This document shows positions 14,700-26,760 of a DNA stretch of 64,000 nucleotides, one piece after another (position 1 is the first letter of the stretch; the number at the start of each line of letters is the position of its first letter). This stretch comes from a virus (lineage: Duplodnaviria > Heunggongvirae > Uroviricota > Caudoviricetes). The stretch is taken from the IMG/VR virus record IMGVR_UViG_3300006204_000424, positions 22,382-86,381 of that record; one strand, written 5' to 3'. Under the pieces are notes generated by a model. It ran no database searches, was not told the origin of the DNA, and saw only the letters and a list, made by a program, of their open reading frames with translations. Position numbers and translations under genes: made by a program.

Positions 14700-15595
14700 T
14701 GTTCTTAGGGGCTTTTCTTGGCTTCAAAACTTCACTTGATCCAACGCCTGTTGCCGCTGGCACGACAGAATATTTTGAGATTGAAAACGGAATCTTTGAC
14801 GAAGTATACCTTGACAGTGACATACAAAGGGAACACAGCACAGTCATTCCAGACTGGGGATATTCCACAATCCTTGACGCAAAATTCAAAGGAAATATTC
14901 TTGCTGGCAATGTAGATTTTACCCTGTCTTCTATTTCATCTATGCTGTTGAAACGCCGTAAAAAAGGAACTTATAAATGGACTACTATTCACCAAATCCC
15001 TATCAGCAGTGAAGATGATTTTGATTTTTACTTCAACGATATCAGTGTGGCATCACAAACTACATATGAATATGCCGCCGTTCCTATTATCAATGGTGTT
15101 GAGGGAACTTATCAAATTATTGGTGTCGATGTAGCATTTGACGGTGCATTTATCATTGACCCAACATATGGATATCAAATCATCCTTAACTTTAAGCGCG
15201 AAAATCTAACCCGTGGCATTCCGTCTAATGTTTTAGAGCCTGTCAATTCTTACTATCCTATTGTGAATTATTATTCCAAAAAAAGATATGACAGTGTAAC
15301 ACTTTCTGGAACATTTATCGAGCTTGACAGAAATACTTGTAATTTTGATACAATTCATAGCTGGCGTTACAGAAAGATGCTACGTGACTTTTTGAGCAAC
15401 CAGCGTTCTAAAATTGTAAAACTCTATGATGGACAGATATGGATGGCATGTGTTGTCGACCCAATCTCAGAAAGTTATAACGGACATCCAGAAAATGTAA
15501 TCACCACTATCAATATTGTTGAAATTGGCGATGTTGAAAATAACCGTGACCTCTATTATCATGGCTTTGCAAACTTTTTGGAGGTGCATATCTAA
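14696..15595 (+). CDS. Phage tail protein
   Basis: Overlapping-stop operon structure within the tail module. No specific motif recognised. Confidence 0.45.
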   Translation: MMFLGAFLGFKTSLDPTPVAAGTTEYFEIENGIFDEVYLDSDIQREHSTVIPDWGYSTILDAKFKGNILAGNVDFTLSSISSMLLKRRKKGTYKWTTIHQIPISSEDDFDFYFNDISVASQTTYEYAAVPIINGVEGTYQIIGVDVAFDGAFIIDPTYGYQIILNFKRENLTRGIPSNVLEPVNSYYPIVNYYSKKRYDSVTLSGTFIELDRNTCNFDTIHSWRYRKMLRDFLSNQRSKIVKLYDGQIWMACVVDPISESYNGHPENVITTINIVEIGDVENNRDLYYHGFANFLEVHI

Positions 15596-17139
15596 TGCCC
15601 TACTACCCTACCCAAAAAGATATACAGGCACTTGGTTTTAGCGAAAAAATAATTCTGGTAAGAATCGTACTATTAAATAATCAGCTTCAAAGCGTTTATG
15701 AATTAAAGTACGAATACATTTCTGGTGATATGACAACCGACACTGACTCTGATATACGAAACACATTCAGTATGACACTTGCAGCTTGCGATGAAAGCGT
15801 TGGAATTGCAGAGAATAAAAAATTATGGATAGATAAATTTATAAAAGTATTTATCGGCATAAAAGTGCCTTGCTGGGAAGAAACATTATGGTATGATAAA
15901 GGCATTTTTGTTATGACAGATTATTCTTATGATGCAATAAATCGTACCCTGCACATTAACTGTTCTGATTTGGTATGTGCCTTAAATGGTGATGTTGGCG
16001 GCAGCCTGGAAGGCTTGGAAACCATTATTTATGAAGCAGATAAGCATACAATTCGTTATGCCATTATTGAAACGCTCACAGACCTTACCCCTTTTCGAAA
16101 ATATTATATAGAGGATATGTCAAAACTTATCCCATTTGATTTGGAATTTGGGGCAACTGATACTGTCTGGACGATCCTGACAAAGTTACGTGATTTGTAT
16201 CCTGGCTATGAAATGTTCTTTGATACAGATGGTACATTTATCTGTTGCAAAGTTTCTACTCTGGAAAGTGACCCTGTATTGCTGGATGACAGCATCTTAC
16301 AACCACTTTATTTATCGGAAACAGATAATGGTGACTTAAAAGACATTCGGAATGTTTCAAAGGTATGGGGAAAATGCTTGGATACAGACTATTTTACAGA
16401 CACTTGCACCTATGATGCATCTTCAAATACTTATAGCGCACATTTCACAGGTATAGCAGTCAATGAAGATGGCAGTTTACCAACCAGCACAAAATTTGCA
16501 GTAAAAATACCAACAACAAATACAGATGCAGGAACAAAGCTTGCAATCTATAACAAAACCAACGCTACAGCCTCGGAAACCCTTGTGTCTACATTGCCAA
16601 TTACTGACAGCTTAGAACAGGAAATTAAAAAAGGTTTTTTCCTTTCATCACGCTCTTTCGTATTCCGTTACCGTAGAAAAAGTATGTATGTAATGGGGCA
16701 ATGGCAGATTTTTGCAGTAAATAAGCTGCGGAACACTGCTCCTACTACTGCACAACATAATGCAGATAAAGCAAAACATGGATGCGATGATATTACTTAC
16801 ACAATTATATCCGACTCCCCATTTGCAATTGAACGGATTGGAGAGCGGCTTAAGACGTTTGAGGGCGGAGAATATGACGACATACAGGCAATAGACGACT
16901 GCATTACCCGCGCAGAGTATGAAACATGGCTGGCGGCAAAAATCGGCTACACCATTACGCTGGAAATGGTATACATCCCATGGCTTCAGGGAAACGAAAA
17001 AATCCGGTTCACTCTGGCGGCAACTGGCGAAACAAAAGACTGGGTTGTTACCAGCATCAGCACATCGTTAAGCGAAGGAACTATGACCCTGACATTAACG
17101 GAGTTCATGCCATTATATAACTTTGAAGTTGTTGAATAA
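15595..17139 (+). CDS. Phage tail/baseplate protein (tail-associated-lysin-like position)
   Basis: 514 aa. ATG overlaps the upstream stop. Tail-module context. Confidence 0.45.
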   Translation: MPYYPTQKDIQALGFSEKIILVRIVLLNNQLQSVYELKYEYISGDMTTDTDSDIRNTFSMTLAACDESVGIAENKKLWIDKFIKVFIGIKVPCWEETLWYDKGIFVMTDYSYDAINRTLHINCSDLVCALNGDVGGSLEGLETIIYEADKHTIRYAIIETLTDLTPFRKYYIEDMSKLIPFDLEFGATDTVWTILTKLRDLYPGYEMFFDTDGTFICCKVSTLESDPVLLDDSILQPLYLSETDNGDLKDIRNVSKVWGKCLDTDYFTDTCTYDASSNTYSAHFTGIAVNEDGSLPTSTKFAVKIPTTNTDAGTKLAIYNKTNATASETLVSTLPITDSLEQEIKKGFFLSSRSFVFRYRRKSMYVMGQWQIFAVNKLRNTAPTTAQHNADKAKHGCDDITYTIISDSPFAIERIGERLKTFEGGEYDDIQAIDDCITRAEYETWLAAKIGYTITLEMVYIPWLQGNEKIRFTLAATGETKDWVVTSISTSLSEGTMTLTLTEFMPLYNFEVVE

Positions 17140-17157
17140 GAAAAGAGGTGAAAATAA

Positions 17158-18288
17158 ATGAGTGAAACATATCTGGATCTGACACACAGTAATTTTCCAG
17201 AGCAAATGGATAAAATGTACGGCTGGCGAGACCCCTCCGCAAGCGAAGTGCCGCTGATTGCACAATATCAGTCCCTAATCGCGTCTGGGCAGGTTGTGAC
17301 TGCTGTTGAGTACCTGAACAGCCACCCTTCCTTAATGGACGTTATCATAAACGCCGACAAGCTGCTCCGCTTACAGCATGGACTGACTGCCGTACAGCGG
17401 TATTTTTACGATAATGTTCTGGATAAGATATACCGCCTTGGAAACATGAAAGGCGATTGGAACAGTCAAATGTCATCCGAAGCAGGCGGGCAGAACCGTT
17501 TGAATAAATTTGACGTAGTACGCTATCCCGTTGACGGCGTAAAACAGTATTTCCTCGTCATCGGTGAAGAAGTCCCTGCTGGTACACTGCCTACTGACGA
17601 AACTGTATATTTGCAGCTTTCCATGAAGGGCGACAAAGGCGATGCCGGTATTGACGGTGTTGACGGCGCACCTGGGCTTGGCATGTCGCCACAAGGCGCA
17701 TGGGTAAATAACAAGCAGTATCATCAATATGACATCGTTTCCCATGATGGATATCTCTGGTATGCCACGGAAGATAATGCATTGACGGAGCCGTCCGATG
17801 ACAATGCTGTGTGGCAGCGTGTACAGATTTCCATGCAGGTTACAACCAGCACAGAAAGGCCCGTAAATTTAGATGATGGTGGTCTGTGGCTGCACATGCA
17901 GGAAGATGGCCACGTTATACTGAAAACAAAAAACGAGAATGGCGAATACCGCACTGTTTATCCAGAAATACAGGCCGCATATGTTTTAGATGCCGCTGGA
18001 GAAAATTTGCAGCGGAAAATATACCGCCATTATTTTGAACGAGATGATGTAACCTCGCACTACAAAGAAAATGACAATATTTACACAGGCGAAGCGAAGC
18101 TGATCAGCAATCCCGCTGTTACTGTTGCTAAGTCTGTAATGACGGATACTTCTGATACAGACGGAAGGTATACGGAAGAATTTACCGTTTATGATGAAAC
18201 TGGCGTTTATATTGTATACAAAACAAAACGTGTTTTTACAGAAAATGAAGATGGAAGCTATGACTGCACGCCAGAAGTGATTGTGTAA
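17158..18288 (+). CDS. Tail fibre protein with collagen-like Gly-X-Y segment
   Basis: KGDKGDAGIDGVDGAPGLG collagen-like repeat, typical of phage fibres. Confidence 0.55.
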   Translation: MSETYLDLTHSNFPEQMDKMYGWRDPSASEVPLIAQYQSLIASGQVVTAVEYLNSHPSLMDVIINADKLLRLQHGLTAVQRYFYDNVLDKIYRLGNMKGDWNSQMSSEAGGQNRLNKFDVVRYPVDGVKQYFLVIGEEVPAGTLPTDETVYLQLSMKGDKGDAGIDGVDGAPGLGMSPQGAWVNNKQYHQYDIVSHDGYLWYATEDNALTEPSDDNAVWQRVQISMQVTTSTERPVNLDDGGLWLHMQEDGHVILKTKNENGEYRTVYPEIQAAYVLDAAGENLQRKIYRHYFERDDVTSHYKENDNIYTGEAKLISNPAVTVAKSVMTDTSDTDGRYTEEFTVYDETGVYIVYKTKRVFTENEDGSYDCTPEVIV

Positions 18289-18317
18289 AGAACACAGAGA
18301 GGAGCTGAAAGAGTATA

Positions 18318-18443
18318 ATGACAATGTTAGTAGAAAGTTTGAGAAGGCTTTATTCCAAAGGCGAAATTACGCTGGAACGTTTGGAAAGCATGATTGGCAA
18401 GTCAATTACGAACGAAGATTTTAGATATATCACGAAAGAATAA
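18318..18443 (+). CDS. XkdX-like small phage protein
   Basis: 41 aa with ...KSITNEDFRYITKE C-terminus (IT..E.y..IT pattern shared with the XkdX-like ORF at 23402). AGAGGAG RBS. Confidence 0.4.
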   Translation: MTMLVESLRRLYSKGEITLERLESMIGKSITNEDFRYITKE

Positions 18444-18485
18444 TTGCCCGATTGAAAGGGTTTTTTATATGCTAAGGAGGAAAAT

Positions 18486-18527
18486 ATGACTTATATTTTA
18501 GGTAGAAAAATTACCCCCCCCCCCTAA
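18486..18527 (+). promoter_or_regulatory. Leader ORF A (MTYILGRKITPPP*) containing an 11-nt poly-C tract (18514-18524) upstream of fibre gene A
   Basis: AAGGAGG RBS, ATG, ...ATT ACC CCC CCC CCC TAA. One of three paralogous cassettes (see findings). Confidence 0.5.
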
Positions 18528-18580
18528 AACATATCTGATTACTATGAATTTGGCGGTATCTCGATTGGAGGTGCTGCGGT

Positions 18581-19372
18581 ATGAATGGTGATTTTGATTT
18601 ATATGTTTTGAATGGGAAAATAAAAGAACTGAGGAAAAGCAACGAGCGGCAGGAAAATGGACTCGGACAGATAGAAGAAAATATTTCTATGATTGGTGAA
18701 AAAATGGAAAACTTATCTGTTGACGTTGATTTGAGCAGCTTAAACAGTACGATTGGGACTGGCTCATTTGCTTCATTAGATAAAATCATTAAAGATGGAA
18801 CTTCAAGTGTCTCTGCCCTTATCTCTGCTTTGAATGGCAAAATAAGTACAGTTTCTGGAGGTGTAAGAAAGTTTACCGCCGATGGAACATTTACCGTTCC
18901 GGCGAATGTAACTAAGATTTGGATTACCGCTTGCGCAGGCGGAGGATACGGAGAACGATATAAAGGCGGCGATGGCGGAGATTGGCTGTTCCGTGAGCCA
19001 TACTCTGTAACTCCGGGGCAAAAACTTACTATTACGGTTGGAAAAGGTGGAATTAGGGTAGGAGATATAGGAGGTTCCACCGTAATTTCCCCTTTGGTAA
19101 CGCTTACTTGTCCGGGACAAAGAGGGGGTATTGGTGGAGATAGTAATGCATATGAATCGCCTTTTGGTATAAATGGAACTGATGGATATGCTGGTGGAGG
19201 TCATGGCACAACTATCAAATCAGGAGAAGGTTTTTTGGCTAATCGCTATGGCGGCGGAGGAAGTTTAGGGAGAGGAGGAGGATATAAAGGTGGGACAAAT
19301 ATTGATCCTGGATATGGTGGCGGTGGCAGCAGCGGAAATGGCAGCGATGGCGTTGTCATTATCGAATGGTAA
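18581..19372 (+). CDS. Glycine-rich tail fibre / receptor-binding candidate (fibre A)
   Basis: GGAGGTG RBS. GGGYG, GGIGGD and GGGGS repeats. Confidence 0.5.
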   Translation: MNGDFDLYVLNGKIKELRKSNERQENGLGQIEENISMIGEKMENLSVDVDLSSLNSTIGTGSFASLDKIIKDGTSSVSALISALNGKISTVSGGVRKFTADGTFTVPANVTKIWITACAGGGYGERYKGGDGGDWLFREPYSVTPGQKLTITVGKGGIRVGDIGGSTVISPLVTLTCPGQRGGIGGDSNAYESPFGINGTDGYAGGGHGTTIKSGEGFLANRYGGGGSLGRGGGYKGGTNIDPGYGGGGSSGNGSDGVVIIEW

Positions 19373-19384
19373 GGAGGTGAACGC

Positions 19385-19726
19385 ATGACGTATGCAATGA
19401 TTTTACAGAATAAAGTAATCGATGTACTGCCGAATCAGGAAACCGAACCATGGTGGCCGCCAGACCCAGCAGGGAATCCGGTTACGGCGGTGCTTTGCGA
19501 TGATACGGTCAAGAAAGGAATGGAATATGAACCAGAAACAGGTGAGTTTTCCGAATACATACCGCCAGAACCAGAACCAGAGCCAATCCCAGAACCGACA
19601 CAGCTTGACCGCATCGAAGCAGCAATCAGTCAATCAAATACATACCTTTCTCAAACTTACTCCGAAATTGAAAATAGAATTATCGACAACTACACAATGT
19701 CTTTGGTCGAAAACAATATCATCTAA
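19385..19726 (+). CDS. XkdW-like protein (paralog 1)
   Basis: PEPEPEPIPEPTQLDRIEAAISQSN motif shared with the ORFs at 23059 and 24750. Confidence 0.5.
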   Translation: MTYAMILQNKVIDVLPNQETEPWWPPDPAGNPVTAVLCDDTVKKGMEYEPETGEFSEYIPPEPEPEPIPEPTQLDRIEAAISQSNTYLSQTYSEIENRIIDNYTMSLVENNII

Positions 19727-19768
19727 AAAATCACCATTCATACAAACAACTTTAAGGAGGAAATTTGT

Positions 19769-20080
19769 ATGAATACAGTTTATGACTTTGCTCAACAGCG
19801 CAAAGCAGAAAAAGAACGATTAAAAAAATTCGATATTACATTATCCGCAGATCATTGGTCTGATACCCTCCCCTACTCTCAGACTGTACAGGTTCAAGGG
19901 GTTACTGGAACAAATATCGTTTTTATAGCCCCTGAACCTGTACAGGAAAATATTGAAGGAGTTGGTGATTGCAAAATCATAGCAACTGAACAAACTACGA
20001 ATGCAATCACCTTCACAGCATTTGACGCAAAGCCTGATATTAACATTAACTTTCATGTTTTAGTTGGGGGTGAGGGTTAA
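19769..20080 (+). CDS. Hypothetical tail-associated protein, overlaps the next gene (ATGCC/TAATG)
   Basis: AAGGAGG RBS. 103 aa. Stop overlaps the start of the 20080 gene. Confidence 0.4.
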   Translation: MNTVYDFAQQRKAEKERLKKFDITLSADHWSDTLPYSQTVQVQGVTGTNIVFIAPEPVQENIEGVGDCKIIATEQTTNAITFTAFDAKPDININFHVLVGGEG

Positions 20081-21318
20081 TGCCAATTATCAATGAAACC
20101 ATTATCAGCGGTGTAAATGCCAAAAATGCTACCGCTACCAGCAAGGATATTCTGCAAGGTAAAACTGCTGTTGCAGGAAAAGAATTGATTACAGGTTCTA
20201 TGCCAGACAAAACTGGTCAAACGGTTAATGGCACATTCTATTCTGGCACTACTGGCTATATCACAGGCAAAATTGCTCAAGAGGGACATTATGCTACGAA
20301 TAGTAAATTAAAGATACCTGTATCTAATTTAACTGCCGGGAATATTAAAAAAGGTATTAATATAGGCGGAGTTGTAGGCACTCTTGAACCTATTCCATCA
20401 AATTTGTCTTTGTTTGCCGAATATTTTTCTCCTGCTAATAACGATTCTGAAATTGTAAATTTTAGTAATGGCAGTTTAGCCATACCCAATACATATTCGG
20501 ATCGTGGCGGTGTATGTTTAGTCAATGGCATCACTACAACTGTTAAATCTTTGGTAAATGGCTCTAACGTTAGACAGTTAGTAGGCGGAGGAACTAAAGC
20601 TATGATCAGAGGGAACTATGGAGCTTTTATATCTACTGACTCTGGTTCTATCTGGAAATCCCCCGTTGGCGTTAATATAACTTCTAGTACAAGTGCGGCA
20701 TTTATAAGGTTCAATGGCTCTAAATTTTATGTATGTATAGGTCTGAATTACACAACCCCACACTATGTTTCAAATACTGCCTGTACTTCTTTTTCTGTTG
20801 TTTCTATTCCATCAAATGATTATGAAGTTGGAAGTAGCACTGATGGTATTTGGTATGCTTATAATCATTCACTGGGCGGCATTTATTCCTCCAGTGATTT
20901 AATAAATTGGACAAAAAAATATACTCTCACAAGCAATGTAACAAATTTTATTAGTCTTTACAAACTAGGTTCTATTGTGTGTGCAACTTTTAATGGGCGC
21001 AGTCGTTCAGGTAGCAATAATACTTCTGCCACATATATCTCTTATGATAACGGACTGACATTTAGTGATAGTTTAAGTATCGGTATATCCTCGTCATATA
21101 CTCATCATAACCATATATTTACCCATAAAAATAATATATTTGTATATAGTTTTCATTCTTCTAAATTACCTCAGACAGTCTACAAAGTTGCCAATGGCAC
21201 AAAAACCATTATTAACTTACCAACAGTAAACTCAAAATACCCGAACATTATAGGTTCTAATGGAACATCATTAATTTTAGCTTATAATAATGGCGTTATT
21301 AGAACAATGTCAGTATAA
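20080..21318 (+). CDS. Receptor-binding protein candidate with BNR/Asp-box (sialidase-like) repeats
   Basis: Asp-box-like S-x-D-x-G-x-(T/S)-W/F motifs (STDSGSIWK, SYDNGLTFS) in the C-terminal half. Confidence 0.5.
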   Translation: MPIINETIISGVNAKNATATSKDILQGKTAVAGKELITGSMPDKTGQTVNGTFYSGTTGYITGKIAQEGHYATNSKLKIPVSNLTAGNIKKGINIGGVVGTLEPIPSNLSLFAEYFSPANNDSEIVNFSNGSLAIPNTYSDRGGVCLVNGITTTVKSLVNGSNVRQLVGGGTKAMIRGNYGAFISTDSGSIWKSPVGVNITSSTSAAFIRFNGSKFYVCIGLNYTTPHYVSNTACTSFSVVSIPSNDYEVGSSTDGIWYAYNHSLGGIYSSSDLINWTKKYTLTSNVTNFISLYKLGSIVCATFNGRSRSGSNNTSATYISYDNGLTFSDSLSIGISSSYTHHNHIFTHKNNIFVYSFHSSKLPQTVYKVANGTKTIINLPTVNSKYPNIIGSNGTSLILAYNNGVIRTMSV

Positions 21319-21403
21319 GATACTGATACTATTTTCTTTATAGTAGTATTTTACTTATACAATAATACGATAAAATCATACAAAACAGTGAGGTGAACAA
21401 CAA

Positions 21404-21976
21404 ATGGATTTATCTGAATTTATTATCAGCAAAATAGAAAATATCACCCCCACAGCTATTATTTTCTGCTGTATTCTTCTGTTCCTTATCATTAATTGGG
21501 TCATTTCAAAAAAAGATTTCTTCATTGATACATGGAACAAATTTTATGAACATCGCAAACGCAGGGAAGAATTTTTTCAAATGCTGATTGATGATCATAA
21601 ACGAATAAAAGAGTATGAAGAAAATCGTATCCATGACAGGGAGCAGTCTTTTCAGATTCAAAAACAGCTGATTGATGCCAATGCAAATCTGGCAGAAAAA
21701 CTTGAATCAATGTCCCAGAAAATTGACGCAAATCAAAAACTTACCGATGAGAGATTTGCCGCATCTGAGGAAAGCAGCAAACAGCGTATACGTGCCGAAT
21801 TGAAAGACAAGCTTCTCAGGGCATACAGACAGCATCATGCCGCCGCACACATTTCTTCTATGGAATTAGAGGCAATGTCAGAACTGATTGAAGTATACTC
21901 TCAAAATGGCGGCAATAGTTTTGTACATGAAATCATTGTTCCCGAAATGTATACTTGGGAAGTTGTAGATGAATAA
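21404..21976 (+). CDS. Membrane-anchored coiled-coil protein
   Basis: N-terminal TM segment AIIFCCILLFLIINWVI, then charged coiled-coil. Confidence 0.4.
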   Translation: MDLSEFIISKIENITPTAIIFCCILLFLIINWVISKKDFFIDTWNKFYEHRKRREEFFQMLIDDHKRIKEYEENRIHDREQSFQIQKQLIDANANLAEKLESMSQKIDANQKLTDERFAASEESSKQRIRAELKDKLLRAYRQHHAAAHISSMELEAMSELIEVYSQNGGNSFVHEIIVPEMYTWEVVDE

Positions 21977-21990
21977 TCCGAGGTGGTAAA

Positions 21991-22332
21991 ATGGCTGCCA
22001 AAAATAAAACTGCCCATGCCACAAAAAAGGCTGCAAAACAAAAAGTACAGACATCAAAACTCATAGTATACTCAAGCCTTGCCCTGTCGTGGGCTTTTAT
22101 TATTTTTATTTGCTATGAGATGCACAGGCTATGTGATTTAAGTCCTGTTGCTGTCATAGGAACATCAATTGTAGGAATGATTGCGGCTACAAATGCGGCT
22201 TATATGTGGAGGGCAAAGCAGGAGGATTATTTAAGGCTTGAGTTAGAAAAAATAAAACGGCTCTCTGAAATGAAGAAAAAATATGGAGATGATTTCATTT
22301 CAGAGGAATTACACGAGGTAAATATGAACTAA
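21991..22332 (+). CDS. Small two-TM membrane protein with Lys-rich N-terminus
   Basis: AKNKTAHATKKAAKQK followed by two hydrophobic helices. Confidence 0.4.
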   Translation: MAAKNKTAHATKKAAKQKVQTSKLIVYSSLALSWAFIIFICYEMHRLCDLSPVAVIGTSIVGMIAATNAAYMWRAKQEDYLRLELEKIKRLSEMKKKYGDDFISEELHEVNMN

Positions 22333-22348
22333 ATGAAAGGAGCATTTC

Positions 22349-22399
22349 ATGGAATATTTGTTAAATAAAACTACCCCCCCCCCCGAAAATTTGAACTAA
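22349..22399 (+). promoter_or_regulatory. Leader ORF B (MEYLLNKTTPPPENLN*) containing an 11-nt poly-C tract (22374-22384) upstream of fibre gene B
   Basis: AAAGGAG RBS plus ATG. Poly-C encodes PPP. Paralogous to leaders A and C. Confidence 0.5.
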
Positions 22400-22457
22400 A
22401 TCAATGCGTACTTCAGACGATTTATTGTGGATATTTTCGAAAGAAGGTGTCCGCATA

Positions 22458-23057
22458 ATGATGGATTGGAATTATTTAATTTTAGGCAGAATCAAGAAAA
22501 TTTTAAACTCCATTTCTTCTATACAGAATCTGCTGTCTTCTACACAGAAGCTGATTGGTACAACAACAGACATAGGCGGGAGCCAGACGGCAGGGACGGT
22601 GTTTGGTAAGGAAAATGCGATACTGGAAACGTTGAAAGAACAGAATGCAAAAATCTTTACAAGTATGGTATGGAAGCAGACTGCAAAAAAGGCCGTGACA
22701 ACCGCTATGAGCGGAGTGAAAATATTGAGTTTTTCTTTTGAAAGTCCGGTTAAATTCAGAGCAATAAACATTGAAGGTACTATAGATTTAGGACAATTTG
22801 CTTCGGCGTATTTTATTAACGGAGAAAGCTCATTCACAGCGTTAGCGTCTATTGCCAGTTCTACTGCTAGATATATGATAGCCGTTGACGGTGGTTCCCG
22901 TAACCGCTTTTTACTTAAAACAAGTTTTGGAGAACGCGAAAATATTTTACAGGACATTTGGATAACACAGATAGATATTCATTTCCCTGCTGTTGCTGCG
23001 GATAAAGTTTCAACATACAATGGCTACGTAGAATATCAGGAAGGGCAGGCGGGATAA
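22458..23057 (+). CDS. Short tail fibre / receptor-binding candidate (fibre B)
   Basis: N-terminus MMDWNYLILGRIKKILNS is paralogous to fibre C (MISDWNTVILSKVKNILGK). Conserved upstream TTCGAAAGAAGGTGT element. Start moved from the track ATG 22404 to 22458 by this homology. Confidence 0.5.
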   Translation: MMDWNYLILGRIKKILNSISSIQNLLSSTQKLIGTTTDIGGSQTAGTVFGKENAILETLKEQNAKIFTSMVWKQTAKKAVTTAMSGVKILSFSFESPVKFRAINIEGTIDLGQFASAYFINGESSFTALASIASSTARYMIAVDGGSRNRFLLKTSFGERENILQDIWITQIDIHFPAVAADKVSTYNGYVEYQEGQAG

Positions 23058-23058
23058 A

Positions 23059-23370
23059 ATGCTGTTATATTTGGATGAAAACCGGAAAATCATTGATAAC
23101 AACTATGTAATCAGCCATGCCAGCGCATTAAAGATAATGGCAGAAAATCCCCTTGCGGAATGGCACGATATTGATTTTTCCTTTGCAATGGGCGAAAACA
23201 GGGCTGGATATGATAAAGTCTTTTATCTGGAAACGGATGGGATGATTCGGATTGAGTATGAGGAAATACCACCCGAACCAGCCCCGCCCCTTTCCGAACA
23301 GGAGCAGATTGCCATTGACACGGCGTTGAATGTGGAATACATTGCCTGCCTGATGGAGGCAAATTTATAA
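23059..23370 (+). CDS. XkdW-like protein (paralog 2)
   Basis: About 100 aa. EEIPPEPAPPLSEQEQIAIDTALN motif. Located between the fibre and the XkdX-like ORF as in PBSX-type late regions. Confidence 0.55.
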   Translation: MLLYLDENRKIIDNNYVISHASALKIMAENPLAEWHDIDFSFAMGENRAGYDKVFYLETDGMIRIEYEEIPPEPAPPLSEQEQIAIDTALNVEYIACLMEANL

Positions 23371-23401
23371 CGACTTTGAAATAATATGAGGAGGAATTTT
23401 C

Positions 23402-23542
23402 ATGATTTACACACTGCTGAAAAACAAAATCACACGGGGTACATACGACAGGGAGGATTTGAAAAACAAGATGGACACATACCTGCTGTTCGGACGCATC
23501 ACGGAGGAACAGTATACGGAACTGACGGGGCTGATGGCATGA
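23402..23542 (+). CDS. XkdX-like small phage protein
   Basis: 46 aa MIYTLLKNKITRGTYDREDLKNKMDTYLLFGRITEEQYTELTGLMA. GAGGAGG RBS. Sits immediately before the holin. Confidence 0.5.
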   Translation: MIYTLLKNKITRGTYDREDLKNKMDTYLLFGRITEEQYTELTGLMA

Positions 23543-23614
23543 TTACGATACATGAAAAGTGTTAATATTTCAACATAATCAGGAGTTTAACTGAAATATA
23601 TAAGGAGGAAAATT

Positions 23615-23980
23615 ATGACAGATATTACGATAATTTTAGAAACAATTATTAAGTTGGCTTGTTTGGTGTTTTTGCTTTTTGTAATCCCCTGTTTGAAAAC
23701 CGCTGGGGCAAATAACAAACTGCTGGCGGCATTAAAGGTCTCTGATGAAATTGCAAAAATTGCAGGTATTGTTGTACGTTCTGCAAACGAACTTGAAATC
23801 ACAGGAGACCTTCTAAAACTTGGAATTACAAAGGCTGATTATGCTATGGAACAGGTCAAAAAAGAACTTGAAAGCAGAGGAATTACTTTTAATGAAGATT
23901 TGATTGTAAAATATATCAAAGCCGCCGTGACAGAACTGCGGGTTGAAATTGCGAATACCCCCGCTGAAAAGGAAAACTAA
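23615..23980 (+). CDS. Phage holin
   Basis: 121 aa with N-terminal TM helix LACLVFLLFVIPCL and a charged C-terminal tail. Upstream of the endolysin. Confidence 0.6.
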   Translation: MTDITIILETIIKLACLVFLLFVIPCLKTAGANNKLLAALKVSDEIAKIAGIVVRSANELEITGDLLKLGITKADYAMEQVKKELESRGITFNEDLIVKYIKAAVTELRVEIANTPAEKEN

Positions 23981-24048
23981 ATAACTTTATTTGAGCAGGG
24001 TAAACCACCCTGCTCTATTCATTTCATACAAAAATGAGGAGGAATTCT

Positions 24049-24096
24049 ATGTATTTATTTGTTAGTAAAATCACCCCCCCCCCCCCGAAAATTTAA
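24049..24096 (+). promoter_or_regulatory. Leader ORF C (MYLFVSKITPPPPKI*) containing a 13-nt poly-C tract (24074-24086) upstream of fibre gene C
   Basis: GAGGAGG RBS plus ATG. Paralogous to leader B. Confidence 0.5.
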
Positions 24097-24156
24097 CCTA
24101 AAAACAAGACTTATTCCAGCCAGATTTTGTAAGTATTTTCGAAAGAAGGTGTTTGC

Positions 24157-24726
24157 ATGATTTCGGATTGGAATACAGTTATTTTGAGTAAGGTAAAAAA
24201 TATATTAGGTAAGATTACAGAACAAAGCAATAAAATAGATGCTGCCAGTTCTATTGCAGAAAATATCCATACAAAGATTGATACGTTGGATGAAAATATA
24301 AATGGAATTAAAACTACATCTGATTCTATCAGTTCAAGCGTGTCAAGTCTTGGTACAATCAATTCAAACGTTTCCTCTGTGAAAAATACCGTTTCAAGCA
24401 TGTCTTCTACGCTGTCTACGGTAAATACTAATGTGAAGAATTTAATGAATAGCGGGAATAGTGTGGTAAAGAGTGTACAGAGGGGAATCGTTAGTAGCAG
24501 TAGAACAATAACTATTTCGACTGTTAATTTATCTAAAAGTATTATTATTACATCTGGCGACGGCCCCGCTGCTTTTTTTGTTAGTAGTAATAGTAGTCTT
24601 TATGGCTCATATGGTCTGGGACGATTCGAAAGCAGTACCCAAATATTTATTAATGTTGCACGTGGAAGTTATGGGGGAAGTTCGTATAGTGCTCAAGTAG
24701 CCTGGCAAGTTATTGAATTTTATTGA
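24157..24726 (+). CDS. Short tail fibre / receptor-binding candidate (fibre C), located between holin and endolysin
   Basis: N-terminal paralogy to fibre B. Ser/Thr/Asn-rich repeats. Confidence 0.5.
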   Translation: MISDWNTVILSKVKNILGKITEQSNKIDAASSIAENIHTKIDTLDENINGIKTTSDSISSSVSSLGTINSNVSSVKNTVSSMSSTLSTVNTNVKNLMNSGNSVVKSVQRGIVSSSRTITISTVNLSKSIIITSGDGPAAFFVSSNSSLYGSYGLGRFESSTQIFINVARGSYGGSSYSAQVAWQVIEFY

Positions 24727-24749
24727 TAAATGGAAATGGAGGTGAATTT

Positions 24750-25052
24750 ATGTCTTTTATTTATGCACAAATTGATGAAAATAATATCTGCTGCGCTGTT
24801 TCTAATCTTTCTGGTGAAATATTCGATACACATTTAATCCCTATTCAAACATTCGACACAACCATGATTGGGAAGAAATTTTCAGATGGTCACTGGCTGG
24901 AAGTGCCAAAATCAGAAATGGGAGAAACCATAGCTCCTGAACCCACACAGCTTGACCGCATTGAAGCTGCCATAAATATGAAAAATAATGAAATTTCAGA
25001 AAGGGCAATTGATACATACACAAAGCAACTGTTGGAAAACGGTTTACTTTAA
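24750..25052 (+). CDS. XkdW-like protein (paralog 3)
   Basis: ETIAPEPTQLDRIEAAINMKNNE motif, nearly identical to the one at 19385. GGAGGTG RBS at ATG 24750. Confidence 0.5.
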   Translation: MSFIYAQIDENNICCAVSNLSGEIFDTHLIPIQTFDTTMIGKKFSDGHWLEVPKSEMGETIAPEPTQLDRIEAAINMKNNEISERAIDTYTKQLLENGLL

Positions 25053-25110
25053 CCTTATACTTCCCTGCCCTTCATCGGGTAGGGATTTTTTTACGAAATG
25101 AGGTGACAAA

Positions 25111-25743
25111 TTGTCAAAGAAAATGACAGGCAAAGAATTAGTGGCATTTGCAAGGTCTAAAATTGGAACACCTTATGTTTATGGTGCAAAGGGTGAGGTT
25201 TTAACAAAAGAAAAATATGACTGGCTGAAAAAACAATATGGTTCCTTGGTTTGGGACAGCGATAAGAAAAAAATCGGAAAGGTTTGTGTGGACTGCTCAG
25301 GACTGCTCTCTTGGGCTTGTGGTGTTGTTTTAGGCTCTAGTCAGTGGAATAGTCATGCTGATGTGAAAAAGCCGATACAAAGCATCTCAGAGGCTCCTAT
25401 GGGGGCTTTGGTCTGGTGTAAAGGACACATTGGCGTTTACAGTGGTTTGAAGAATGGAGTCCCTTGCTATATCGCAGCAGATGGATCAGCATATGGTGTG
25501 CGGGAAGTGCCATTGAGCCAGAATAAGTTCACACATTGGCTGCTTGTCCATGATTTTTTCGAGTATGAGGAGGACGAAATGGTAGAAAGAGATATGATTG
25601 TTGTAAATGATACAGAATATAGTGTTGATATGATTCGGAAAGATGGGACTACGTTTATTAAAACCAGGGATATTGCTGATATTCTAGGAATGAAGGTATC
25701 GAGTAATGGGAGGATTCCTGTGTTGGAGAGTGGGAAGAAGTGA
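25111..25743 (+). CDS. NlpC/P60 (CHAP-like) cell-wall peptidase, endolysin
   Basis: Catalytic Cys context CVDCSGL and His context KGHIGVYSG. End of the lysis cassette. Confidence 0.65.
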   Translation: MSKKMTGKELVAFARSKIGTPYVYGAKGEVLTKEKYDWLKKQYGSLVWDSDKKKIGKVCVDCSGLLSWACGVVLGSSQWNSHADVKKPIQSISEAPMGALVWCKGHIGVYSGLKNGVPCYIAADGSAYGVREVPLSQNKFTHWLLVHDFFEYEEDEMVERDMIVVNDTEYSVDMIRKDGTTFIKTRDIADILGMKVSSNGRIPVLESGKK

Positions 25744-26131
25744 AGTTATGGCATTTGAAATATCAGATTTAGAATTTATAAGTGGAATGGGATTATACTT
25801 AGATAAATTGCAATCTTTACCTGATGAAATTGCAAAAAAAGAAGCATTGTATGCTTTGATCCGCACTGGTGTATTGGATAAGGATGGCAAGGCAAAAAGT
25901 TGTATTGTTTCTTTAGTGTGAAGTTTCTTTAGTGTGAAAATAGATGTGCTAAAAATAGATAGGAGCAATATAGTATATACTCCACATAATATAACTGTAA
26001 AAACTTTAACATCATGCCTCTTGCCTTTTTTCTCTAATGGCATTATAATAAATCTGCATAGAATGACAAATTTCGCTTTTCTTATATAGTATACTGTTAT
26101 TGCTTAAACAAAAAATAAGAGAGGTTATTTT

Positions 26132-26350
26132 ATGCGTCCAAAAAAGAAGTTATCCAAGATGAAAGGGGATGTTTATATGCGGACTATAACTGATTCTCAT
26201 ATGAATGATTTGAAAAAACGCGCATCTCAAAGACGCATCCTTTTCCCCAATCAAAAAAACTCAGAAGATGTAAAACTAGAAAATGATTTTTTTGAAGATG
26301 TAAAGAATAAAATGTATGAACAAATTTCGGAGGATGAAAAATGGAATTGA
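26132..26350 (+). CDS. Putative antitoxin partner of the MazF-like toxin
   Basis: 72-aa ORF overlapping the toxin start by 10 nt. Basic N-terminus. Confidence 0.4.
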   Translation: MRPKKKLSKMKGDVYMRTITDSHMNDLKKRASQRRILFPNQKNSEDVKLENDFFEDVKNKMYEQISEDEKWN

Positions 26351-26760
26351 AACGTGGGGAAATATATTATATAACTTTTCCATATACCCTTGATCCAAAG
26401 TATCCTAATGGTAAACCTAAATTTGTATTGGTATTACAAGAGGGCGAATACTTTGCAAAATATAACACGGTTGAAATAATGCTTATTACTTCTGATAAGC
26501 AATATAAGCCTAGAGAAAAATATGCTACTGATGTAGAAATAGAAGTGGGGACAACAAAACTTAAAGATAAATCATGGGTTCTTTGTTCACAACCTTATCC
26601 AATTGAAAAGAAGTTATTTGAGCAATCTGGCGTATGGTGTGCGGGGATGTTATCTGCCGAAAAAATGGATGAAATCGATGAAGCTACTTATATTGGATTA
26701 TGTATGGGGTTACAGCATGAACTTGCACTTGAACCAGCAGATGAAGATTCTGATAATTGA
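26341..26760 (+). CDS. MazF/PemK-family mRNA interferase toxin
   Basis: RGEIYYITFPY...GKPKFVLVLQEG...VEIMLITSDKQ...KSWVLCSQPYPIEKK matches the MazF/PemK fold motif order. Confidence 0.65.
   Translation: MELKRGEIYYITFPYTLDPKYPNGKPKFVLVLQEGEYFAKYNTVEIMLITSDKQYKPREKYATDVEIEVGTTKLKDKSWVLCSQPYPIEKKLFEQSGVWCAGMLSAEKMDEIDEATYIGLCMGLQHELALEPADEDSDN

Follow-up and report, generated by a model that had tools for sequence, protein, structure and literature searches.

We consider it on balance probable that a run of 13 cytosines, the C13 tract of what we call cassette C, works by way of a short leader open reading frame (ORF) as a mutable switch that turns the translation of one of three alternative tail-fibre-like genes in a phage genome on or off. 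The DNA in question is a 64,000-nucleotide stretch of IMG/VR virus record IMGVR_UViG_3300006204_000424 (Caudoviricetes; positions 22,382 to 86,381 of that record), referred to below as the window, and the tract is the third of three similar tracts in three parallel cassettes, A, B and C. A wider proposal, which we hold with about even confidence, is that a hypermutable homopolymer in an upstream ORF gates a separate downstream gene by unmasking its Shine-Dalgarno (SD) sequence, that this constitutes a previously undescribed form of phase variation, and that one gut prophage uses it three times, giving a combinatorial, heritable and reversible receptor-binding repertoire in which, at the commonest tract length, cassette A would be ON and cassettes B and C OFF. 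The parts of cassette C are listed here by window position, with lengths in nucleotides (nt), base pairs (bp) or amino acids.

24036-24042, + strand: SD sequence of the leader, GAGGAGG, 6 nt 5' of the leader ATG at 24049
24049-24096, + strand: leader ORF as sequenced, 15 amino acids, MYLFVSKITPPPPKI*, with its stop codon at 24094-24096
24074-24086, + strand: C13 homopolymer, the putative hypermutable element, with 9-14 C in contigs whose flanks are otherwise identical
24049-24160, + strand: extent of the read-through leader (36 amino acids at 12 C), whose TGA at 24158-24160 overlaps the fibre ATG at 24157
24128-24157, + strand: core of the predicted hairpin, with an outer helix extending it to 24122-24163 (13 bp + 5 bp, -12.1 kcal/mol)
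24145-24151, + strand: SD sequence of fibre C, GAAGGTG, 5 nt before the ATG, with 7 of 7 nt paired in the predicted hairpin
24157-24726, + strand: fibre C ORF, 189 amino acids, with a long N-terminal helix and a variable C-terminal domain
24750-25052, + strand: partner ORF of cassette C, 100 amino acids, homologous to the 113-amino-acid ORF after fibre A

An earlier sequence-only reading had placed a 13-C tract inside a short leader ORF at this site, and exactly 13 C are indeed counted at 24074-24086, a length that comes from a single assembly of a hard-to-sequence run and varies between assemblies. When the region was rebuilt in silico with 9 to 16 C, the reconstructions showed a simple frame logic. 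With 9, 12 or 15 C, the leader extends to 35-37 amino acids and stops at the TGA at 24158-24160, which shares bases with the fibre ATG at 24157 (ATGA); with 10, 13 or 16 C, it ends after 14-16 amino acids at the TAA at 24094-24096, and with 11 or 14 C, it ends after 16-17 amino acids at the TAA at 24099-24101. At 12 C, the leader reads MYLFVSKITPPPRKFNLKTRLIPARFCKYFRKKVFA*, which agrees with the earlier claims that the loss of one C produces a 36-amino-acid leader ending on the fibre C start and that 12 C gives leaders of 36 amino acids in both cassettes B and C. The tract lies 71 nt upstream of the fibre C ATG, in an ORF separate from that of the fibre, and a leader-fibre fusion was rejected: the frames of the leader and the downstream ORF are joined at no tract length tested (9-16 C). 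The earlier statements on the sequence of cassette C all hold, their interpretation is supported by the comparisons given below, and the mechanism that we propose is plausible.

We infer that tract C gains or loses C through slipped-strand mispairing at DNA replication. In two of the three frames, a ribosome translating the leader would stop 8-15 nt past the tract, about 30 nt short of the predicted hairpin, which, left folded, would mask the fibre SD sequence and part of the AUG and allow only poor translation of the fibre (OFF). At 9, 12 or 15 C, the leader is in the third frame, and its ribosome would melt the hairpin and terminate on the ATGA, after which the same ribosome or a new one could start the fibre gene, so that read-through would represent the ON state of a positive translational coupling. 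A buried SD sequence of this kind would give a mechanistic reason for the stop/start overlap. Cassettes A and B would operate likewise, and because each cassette has its own switching tract, a phage population may hold a heritable mix of fibre repertoires that would be reversible within a clone.

The window has a G+C content of 34% over its 64 kb, and its only C runs longer than 6 are C11 at 18514-18524 (cassette A), C11 at 22374-22384 (cassette B) and C13 at 24074-24086 (cassette C); outside these three tracts, C runs reach at most 6 nt and G runs at most 5 nt. Homopolymers of G or C become hypermutable at about 8 or more nt. The three tracts, which form the top direct-repeat family of the region, are all on the + strand. 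Each is found some 25 nt from the start of a short ORF that has a strong ribosome-binding site (RBS), and 57-74 nt upstream of a fibre-like gene. The cassettes also have their order in common, a leader being followed by a fibre gene and then by a small partner ORF of about 100 amino acids, and the partner ORFs of cassettes A and C are homologous (36% identity, E 1e-12). The counterparts in cassettes A and B are as follows.

18486-19726, + strand: cassette A, with the leader ATG at 18486, the C11 tract at 18514-18524 and a predicted SD hairpin at 18553-18577 (10 bp, -16.1 kcal/mol)
18581-19372, + strand: fibre A, with a Gly_rich_2 domain
19385-19726, + strand: partner ORF of cassette A
22349-23370, + strand: cassette B, with the leader ATG at 22349, the C11 tract at 22374-22384 and a predicted SD hairpin at 22426-22455 (13 bp, -16.9 kcal/mol)
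22458-23057, + strand: fibre B
23059-23370, + strand: partner ORF of cassette B

Read-through needs 10 or 13 C in cassette A, 9 or 12 C in cassette B and 9 or 12 C in cassette C. The read-through stop meets the fibre start as TAATG in cassette B and as ATGA in cassette C, and in cassette A it is a TGA lying 8-10 nt inside the gene; in all three cassettes, the remaining two frames reach a stop no more than 15 nt past the tract. As sequenced, all three stand in a short-leader frame, which is presumed to be OFF.

Tract-length profiling, which the sequence-only reading had proposed as a check, was carried out on Logan, JGI and ENA contigs carrying an exact or 99% identical fibre C, with duplicate records removed, and it revealed tracts of 9, 10, 11, 13 or 14 C in cassette C between otherwise identical flanks. 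The complete tracts (n=14) measured 13, 11, 10, 10, 9, 14, 11, 11, 13, 10, 14, 9, 10 and 10 C. Within each of two haplotype groups, the flanks were identical over up to 1,500 nt and tract C measured 13/11/14/11/11 C in one and 13/14/9/10/10 C in the other; moreover, 16 contig pairs showed zero flank differences and unequal tract C lengths. This comparison lends support to hypermutability of the tract. Three contigs (L005, L010 and L012) begin inside tract C, and breaks of this kind are what graph branching from within-sample heterogeneity would produce, sequencing dropout being the alternative. Tract lengths ranged over 9-13 C in cassettes A and B and over 9-14 C in cassette C, with read-through frames in 7 of 12, 1 of 13 and 2 of 14 tracts, respectively; these counts are small and the samples are partly non-independent. 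The commonest length was 10 C in all three tracts, which is a read-through length in A and a short-leader length in B and C, and because of this, the commonest genotype is one with A in read-through and B and C short. Other combinations also occur: C in read-through with A and B short in the relative L029, A and B both in read-through in L090, and none in read-through in the window and in L014. Damage around the tract was observed in a few contigs: in L018 (229-300), the run is 19 C long and gives way to about 50 nt of unrelated A-rich sequence, L081 has lost about 7 nt at 160-175, a short deletion that puts a stop in the fibre gene, and L080 (1-140) has a ParA-like fragment joined to the middle of the fibre gene. 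Such damage could represent either assembly chimeras or real decay.

The second proposed check, a comparison with related prophages, was also carried out. Relatives were found by scanning IMG/VR and metagenomes with the baseplate protein, and they form a small phage group at 62-90% baseplate identity, some members of which are labelled human gut. Species-representative genomes, scanned once with the baseplate protein and once with its alignment, yielded no relative, and cultured phages gave no DNA match; the nearest deposited baseplate homologues belong to an unannotated human faecal phage record (27.6%) and to cultured Enterocloster phages (about 26%). L029 (90% identity) keeps the layout and carries cassettes A, B and C; with 9 C, its cassette C stands in a read-through frame, and the long ORF is still open across a spacer that carries about a dozen substitutions. 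The layout recurs as a fourth type, D, in L031 and L037 (66%), where a leader beginning MRFVRKKST runs into C9 or C10 and then into an unrelated spacer. Type D has its own predicted SD hairpin and its own ATGA overlap, and it would read through at 8 or 11 C, with a 36-amino-acid leader at 11 C. A looser fifth type, E, is present in L021 (67%): here the 3' end of a partner-like ORF contains a G9 run. As sequenced, this ORF stays open until it overlaps the start of the next gene as ATGA, and within 17 nt both remaining frames are closed. No clear SD hairpin was predicted for type E in L021, 4 of the 7 SD nt being paired in a different short stem. The layout in which two frames close within 17 nt and the third remains open over 51 nt or more was seen in all five element types (A-E); under a Markov model of the local sequence, it has a probability of about 0.076 per element, a figure computed before demanding the stop/start overlap.

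In the related loci (about 20 kb), there is no C or G run of 6 or more besides the tracts, and tractless relatives have none. Fibre genes without a tract in the relatives start directly after the preceding stop with a plain RBS, and have neither leader nor hairpin. From this comparison, the leader, the tract and the overlapping stop/start (together with the hairpin in types A to D) therefore travel as a module. A search of IMG/VR with the conserved 18-mer TATTTTCGAAAGAAGGTG returned three matches, all unrelated chance matches, and an architecture pattern (C9, a gap of 45-75 nt, AGGTG, a gap of 5-8 nt, ATGA) returned 37 loci from IMG/VR, most of them from phages of higher G+C content and none with a comparable RBS and short-ORF leader. 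Within IMG/VR, the element looks confined to this small phage group. Resemblances among the leaders extend to two further details. Their N-termini are alike, following M-x-(Y/F)-hydrophobic-x-K/R-K-x-T-PPP (window 18474-18486, 22336-22349 and 24036-24049, and the leaders of L031 and L037), and in three types the leader is exactly 36 amino acids long at the commonest read-through length, which is 12 C in both B and C and 11 C in D.

These comparisons bear on the possibility that the tract is hypermutable and non-regulatory, with the fibre translated from its own SD sequence and the length differences arising from neutral drift or from short-read or assembly error. Fibre C does possess its own GAAGGTG 5 nt from the ATG, most assemblies, including the window, stand in non-read-through frames for B and C, and the contig breaks at the tract could equally well come from sequencing dropout. 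However, the full layout of leader, tract, frames and overlap recurs in five diverged types (with the predicted SD hairpin in A-D), these phages have no other long C or G runs, the diverged spacer of L029 keeps the read-through ORF open, and tractless fibre genes carry neither leader nor hairpin. We therefore regard a tract with no regulatory role as unlikely.

Slippage at the level of RNA or the ribosome has also to be weighed against a switch in the DNA. A tRNA-Pro might shift by +1 or -1 on CCC-C, or RNA polymerase might slip on the run, and the outcome would be a non-heritable, low and constant dose of fibre per cell. At 13 C, the frame reached by a +1 shift within the run is precisely that of read-through; CCC-N sites are classic for +1 shifts, long homopolymers permit transcriptional slippage, and every frame of the tract codes for polyproline, PPP(P), which slows ribosomes. 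Programmed sites, however, have a fixed length and a nearby stimulator (5-9 nt downstream), whereas the tract here ranges over 9-14 C between otherwise identical genomes and the nearest predicted structure lies about 35-40 nt past it; in addition, the cassettes would need opposite shift directions. Slippage may add to a DNA switch, as extra leakiness, without replacing it, and as the whole explanation we think it unlikely.

The preferred reading, a DNA switch read out by coupling, draws further on the hairpins predicted over the fibre starts. In cassette C, 24128-24140 pairs with 24145-24157 around a GAAA loop (24141-24144), and the fibre SD sequence and the A and G of the AUG are predicted to be paired. 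In types A to D, 6-7 of the 7 SD nt are paired in predicted hairpins of 10-15 bp; an SD hairpin, predicted in all three cassettes of the window, is a feature absent from the sequence-only reading. As an accessibility control, pairing probabilities were calculated for positions -15 to +3 of 22 + strand genes (window 1-27000). The least accessible starts were those of fibre B (0.21 unpaired), fibre C (0.25) and fibre A (0.31), the other 19 genes ranging over 0.32-0.66, and the chance of three named genes taking the bottom three places of 22 is about 1 in 1,540. The stem sequence from the SD to the AUG varies by type, and the complementary upstream segment matches it in each, as the following pairings show.

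Type A: GCGG with CUGC
Type B: UGUGGA with UCCGCA
Type C, window: UGUAAG with UUUGCA
Type C, L029: UGUAAGC with GCUUGCA
Type D: UGCUAU with GGUAGCA

Between the stems of B and C, there are two double-sided compensatory changes, from U-A pairs to C-G pairs, and between the window and L029 there are two one-sided changes that strengthen a pair, from G-U to G-C and from U-G to C-G. Rfam gave no match in 17000-26000. No U run follows the cassette C hairpin, because of which we do not take the SD hairpin for an intrinsic terminator.

This last point also concerns the proposal that the polarity is reversed, with read-through occluding the fibre start (OFF), or that an early leader stop exposes C-rich RNA to a Rho or attenuator effect. 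Under reversal, B and C would be mostly ON, their non-read-through frames being the common ones; C-rich unstructured RNA is a good loading site for Rho, and terminator-like hairpins bracket cassette C. Yet an ATGA or TAATG overlap combined with a buried SD sequence is the standard signature of positive coupling, and the commonest length of tract A, 10 C, gives read-through. Attenuation is opposed by the missing U run after the hairpin, and the roughly 60 nt of untranslated RNA between the early stop and the fibre start is short for Rho. We consider reversed polarity or a transcriptional effect very unlikely.

The products that such a switch would control resemble tail fibres to differing degrees. 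Fibre A has the Gly_rich_2 domain together with matches to tail-fibre PHROG families, and fibres B and C have only a short N-terminal motif, DWN..IL...K.IL, in common; sequence searches of the PDB with fibres B and C returned nothing meaningful. Single-sequence AlphaFold2 modelled residues 2-113 of fibre C (112 residues) as a helix with a predicted local distance difference test score (pLDDT) >90. Among cassette C alleles (the window vs L029 and L080 vs L081), the N-terminus is kept and the C-terminal domain is swapped, and in type D the C-terminal domain is likewise swapped between L031 and L037 with the N-terminus kept. Receptor-binding proteins typically show such a modular pattern. As circumstantial evidence, it would fit a fibre or receptor-binding role for the 189-amino-acid fibre C product, as would the tail-fibre, XkdX, holin and lysin genes around the cassettes.

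Several observations weigh against regulation of a fibre by coupling through tract C. Read-through is rare for B (1/13) and C (2/14) and the window itself is OFF throughout, which would fit neutral length drift in a silent prophage, and part of the length spread could come from short-read errors at long C runs. The fold z-scores of the whole region are modest (-1.1 to -2.6), and RNAalifold on a MAFFT alignment of all hairpin types found almost no consensus energy; we regard the latter result as uninformative, since the pairing register of types A and D is not that of B and C, and the helices were compared type by type in place of a consensus fold. The OFF state may be leaky, since the fibre has a reasonable SD sequence of its own and the hairpin of cassette C, at only -12 kcal/mol, contains many G-U pairs. 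As for the protein, fibre C had no direct match to known fibre families, only matches of the coiled-coil type, and its C-terminal domain is poorly modelled by AlphaFold2 (pLDDT <50).

Other routes to variable fibres were examined in the same region. DNA inversion by an invertase or shufflon was rejected for the fibre region: the only inverted repeats in 17000-26200 are weak ones of 18-23 nt with 78-84% complementarity. A diversity-generating retroelement was rejected as well, as the fibre genes in 17000-26200 contain no long imperfect direct repeat of the template/variable kind; this repeat search covered 17000-26200, and elsewhere in the window no search aimed at recombinase or reverse-transcriptase genes was made. 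Like the Gin-controlled G segment of Mu, Cin of P1 and the retroelement of Bordetella phage BPP-1, the cassettes would let one genome give rise to particles with alternative host-recognition proteins, but the mechanism is unrelated, the fibre region here having neither convincing inverted repeats nor a template/variable pair.

Homopolymer contingency loci are a classic bacterial bet-hedging device, and phase variation at homopolymers occurs in Neisseria, Haemophilus, Campylobacter and Bordetella. To our knowledge, the only phages with reports of such loci are Campylobacter phages and, recently, coliphages. As at the bacterial and coliphage loci, where the length of a simple-sequence repeat toggles expression stochastically and reversibly, tract C is well above the usual hypermutability range and would switch in the same manner. 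The known loci, however, shift the frame of the target gene or the spacing of its promoter, whereas here the frameshift is in an upstream ORF and the proposed readout is translational coupling. Contingency loci in the coliphages T2 and T4 are described by Gomez et al. (2025 preprint, PMC12633550). In the Fletchervirus group of Campylobacter phages, genes for receptor-binding proteins contain polyG tracts that are hypermutable, and these are the closest precedent (Sorensen et al. 2021, Cell Rep 35:109214, as cited in PMC12633550 and PMC12823448). As far as those citing accounts go, the two systems are alike in having a hypermutable G/C homopolymer of 7-14 nt, a tie to host-recognition proteins and mixed phage populations. 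By the same accounts, the Fletchervirus tract lies inside the frame of the receptor-binding protein and changes that protein; our tract, unlike it, lies in a separate leader ORF of 15-36 amino acids and leaves the fibre ORF untouched, and it belongs to a temperate prophage with three parallel cassettes from low-G+C gut metagenome assemblies.

The other half of the proposed mechanism also has precedents. Translational coupling by SD unmasking links the MS2 coat gene to the replicase and lysis genes, and leader ORFs exert control in systems such as ermC. Salmonella mgtA, with its upstream ORF (uORF), is a further example of leader-ORF control (PMC8092293). In all of these, as predicted here, a hairpin hides a start codon, the ORF upstream stops at that start or runs into it, and translation of this ORF opens the structure; unlike here, where a mutable DNA tract would set the coupling, theirs is constitutive or set by a drug or metabolite. 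Full-text searches of one library, a weak negative, found no description of phase variation combined with translational coupling, a leader peptide or a uORF among the papers listed.

If our reading is true, a prophage from gut metagenome assemblies uses three fibre cassettes that switch independently of one another to hedge its host range, and does so by a route outside the listed mechanisms of phase variation, namely a leader-ORF frameshift read out by translational coupling. Should the model hold, consensus assemblies would misstate which host-recognition genes such phages express. The combination of an RBS, a short ORF, a G/C run, an SD hairpin and an ATGA overlap provides a signature that can be searched for in viromes.

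The cassettes are placed within the tail and lysis module of the prophage, the neighbouring features of which are as follows.

15595-17139: gene of 514 amino acids with a PHROG tail-protein match, and DUF5048 in the precomputed annotation of identical copies
17158-18288: gene for a tail-fibre protein of 376 amino acids
23402-23542: small XkdX-like ORF
23615-23980: holin, 121 amino acids (phrog_6918, E 5.5e-14)
23993-24015, + strand: terminator-like hairpin between the holin gene and the cassette C leader, with a 9-bp stem, 6 G-C pairs and a T-rich tail
25062-25085, + strand: terminator-like hairpin ending cassette C, 5' of the lysin gene
25111-25743: NlpC/P60-like lysin gene, 210 amino acids

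From the assignments of the holin (23615-23980) and the lysin (25111-25743), cassette C therefore lies between these two genes. A fourth fibre-like gene, of 412 amino acids (20080-21318, phrog_38337), is located between cassettes A and B. It has no tract, leader or hairpin, and a 103-amino-acid ORF that precedes it (19769-20080) ends in ATGA; it is apparently a candidate for constitutive host recognition.

In some near-identical prophages, an ORF of 332 amino acids stands directly 3' of the cassette C partner ORF (L004 8946-10704, L005 1027-2785 and L007 1560-3318). It has a weak GIY-YIG and a faint NUMOD1 Pfam match, as a homing-endonuclease-like protein might, and the lysin that follows it is of the Peptidase_C39_2 type, with 240-247 amino acids; window 25053-25743 has the NlpC/P60-like lysin instead.

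The structural genes of the relatives L020-L026 and L033-L035 contain 51 in-frame TAG codons in tblastn alignments to window proteins (for example at L020 10964, L022 10955, and L026 10331 and 11207), and the residue facing them in the window homologue is Tyr in 37 cases and Trp in 7. The same relatives showed a single in-frame TAA and no in-frame TGA, and the window phage is without in-frame TAG. This pattern suggests that TAG is read as a sense codon in those relatives, probably for an aromatic residue. No tRNA genes were found in the related loci of about 20 kb or in the window.

At the right end of the prophage, window 26132-26760 holds an ORF of 72 amino acids overlapping one of 139 amino acids, the latter annotated as PemK_toxin in the precomputed annotation of identical copies, and the pair looks like a toxin-antitoxin module. 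Host-like genes (OCD_Mu_crystall, SSF and GntR) lie just past it. The neighbours of this end depend on the sample: L005 (6095-7276) has an integrase followed by dUTPase and FolD-like genes, and L006 (3491-7168) and L008 include an ORF of 772 amino acids, L006 also having a CAP12-PCTIR_TIR protein, a domain linked to phage defence. These differing neighbours suggest different integration sites or variable cargo.

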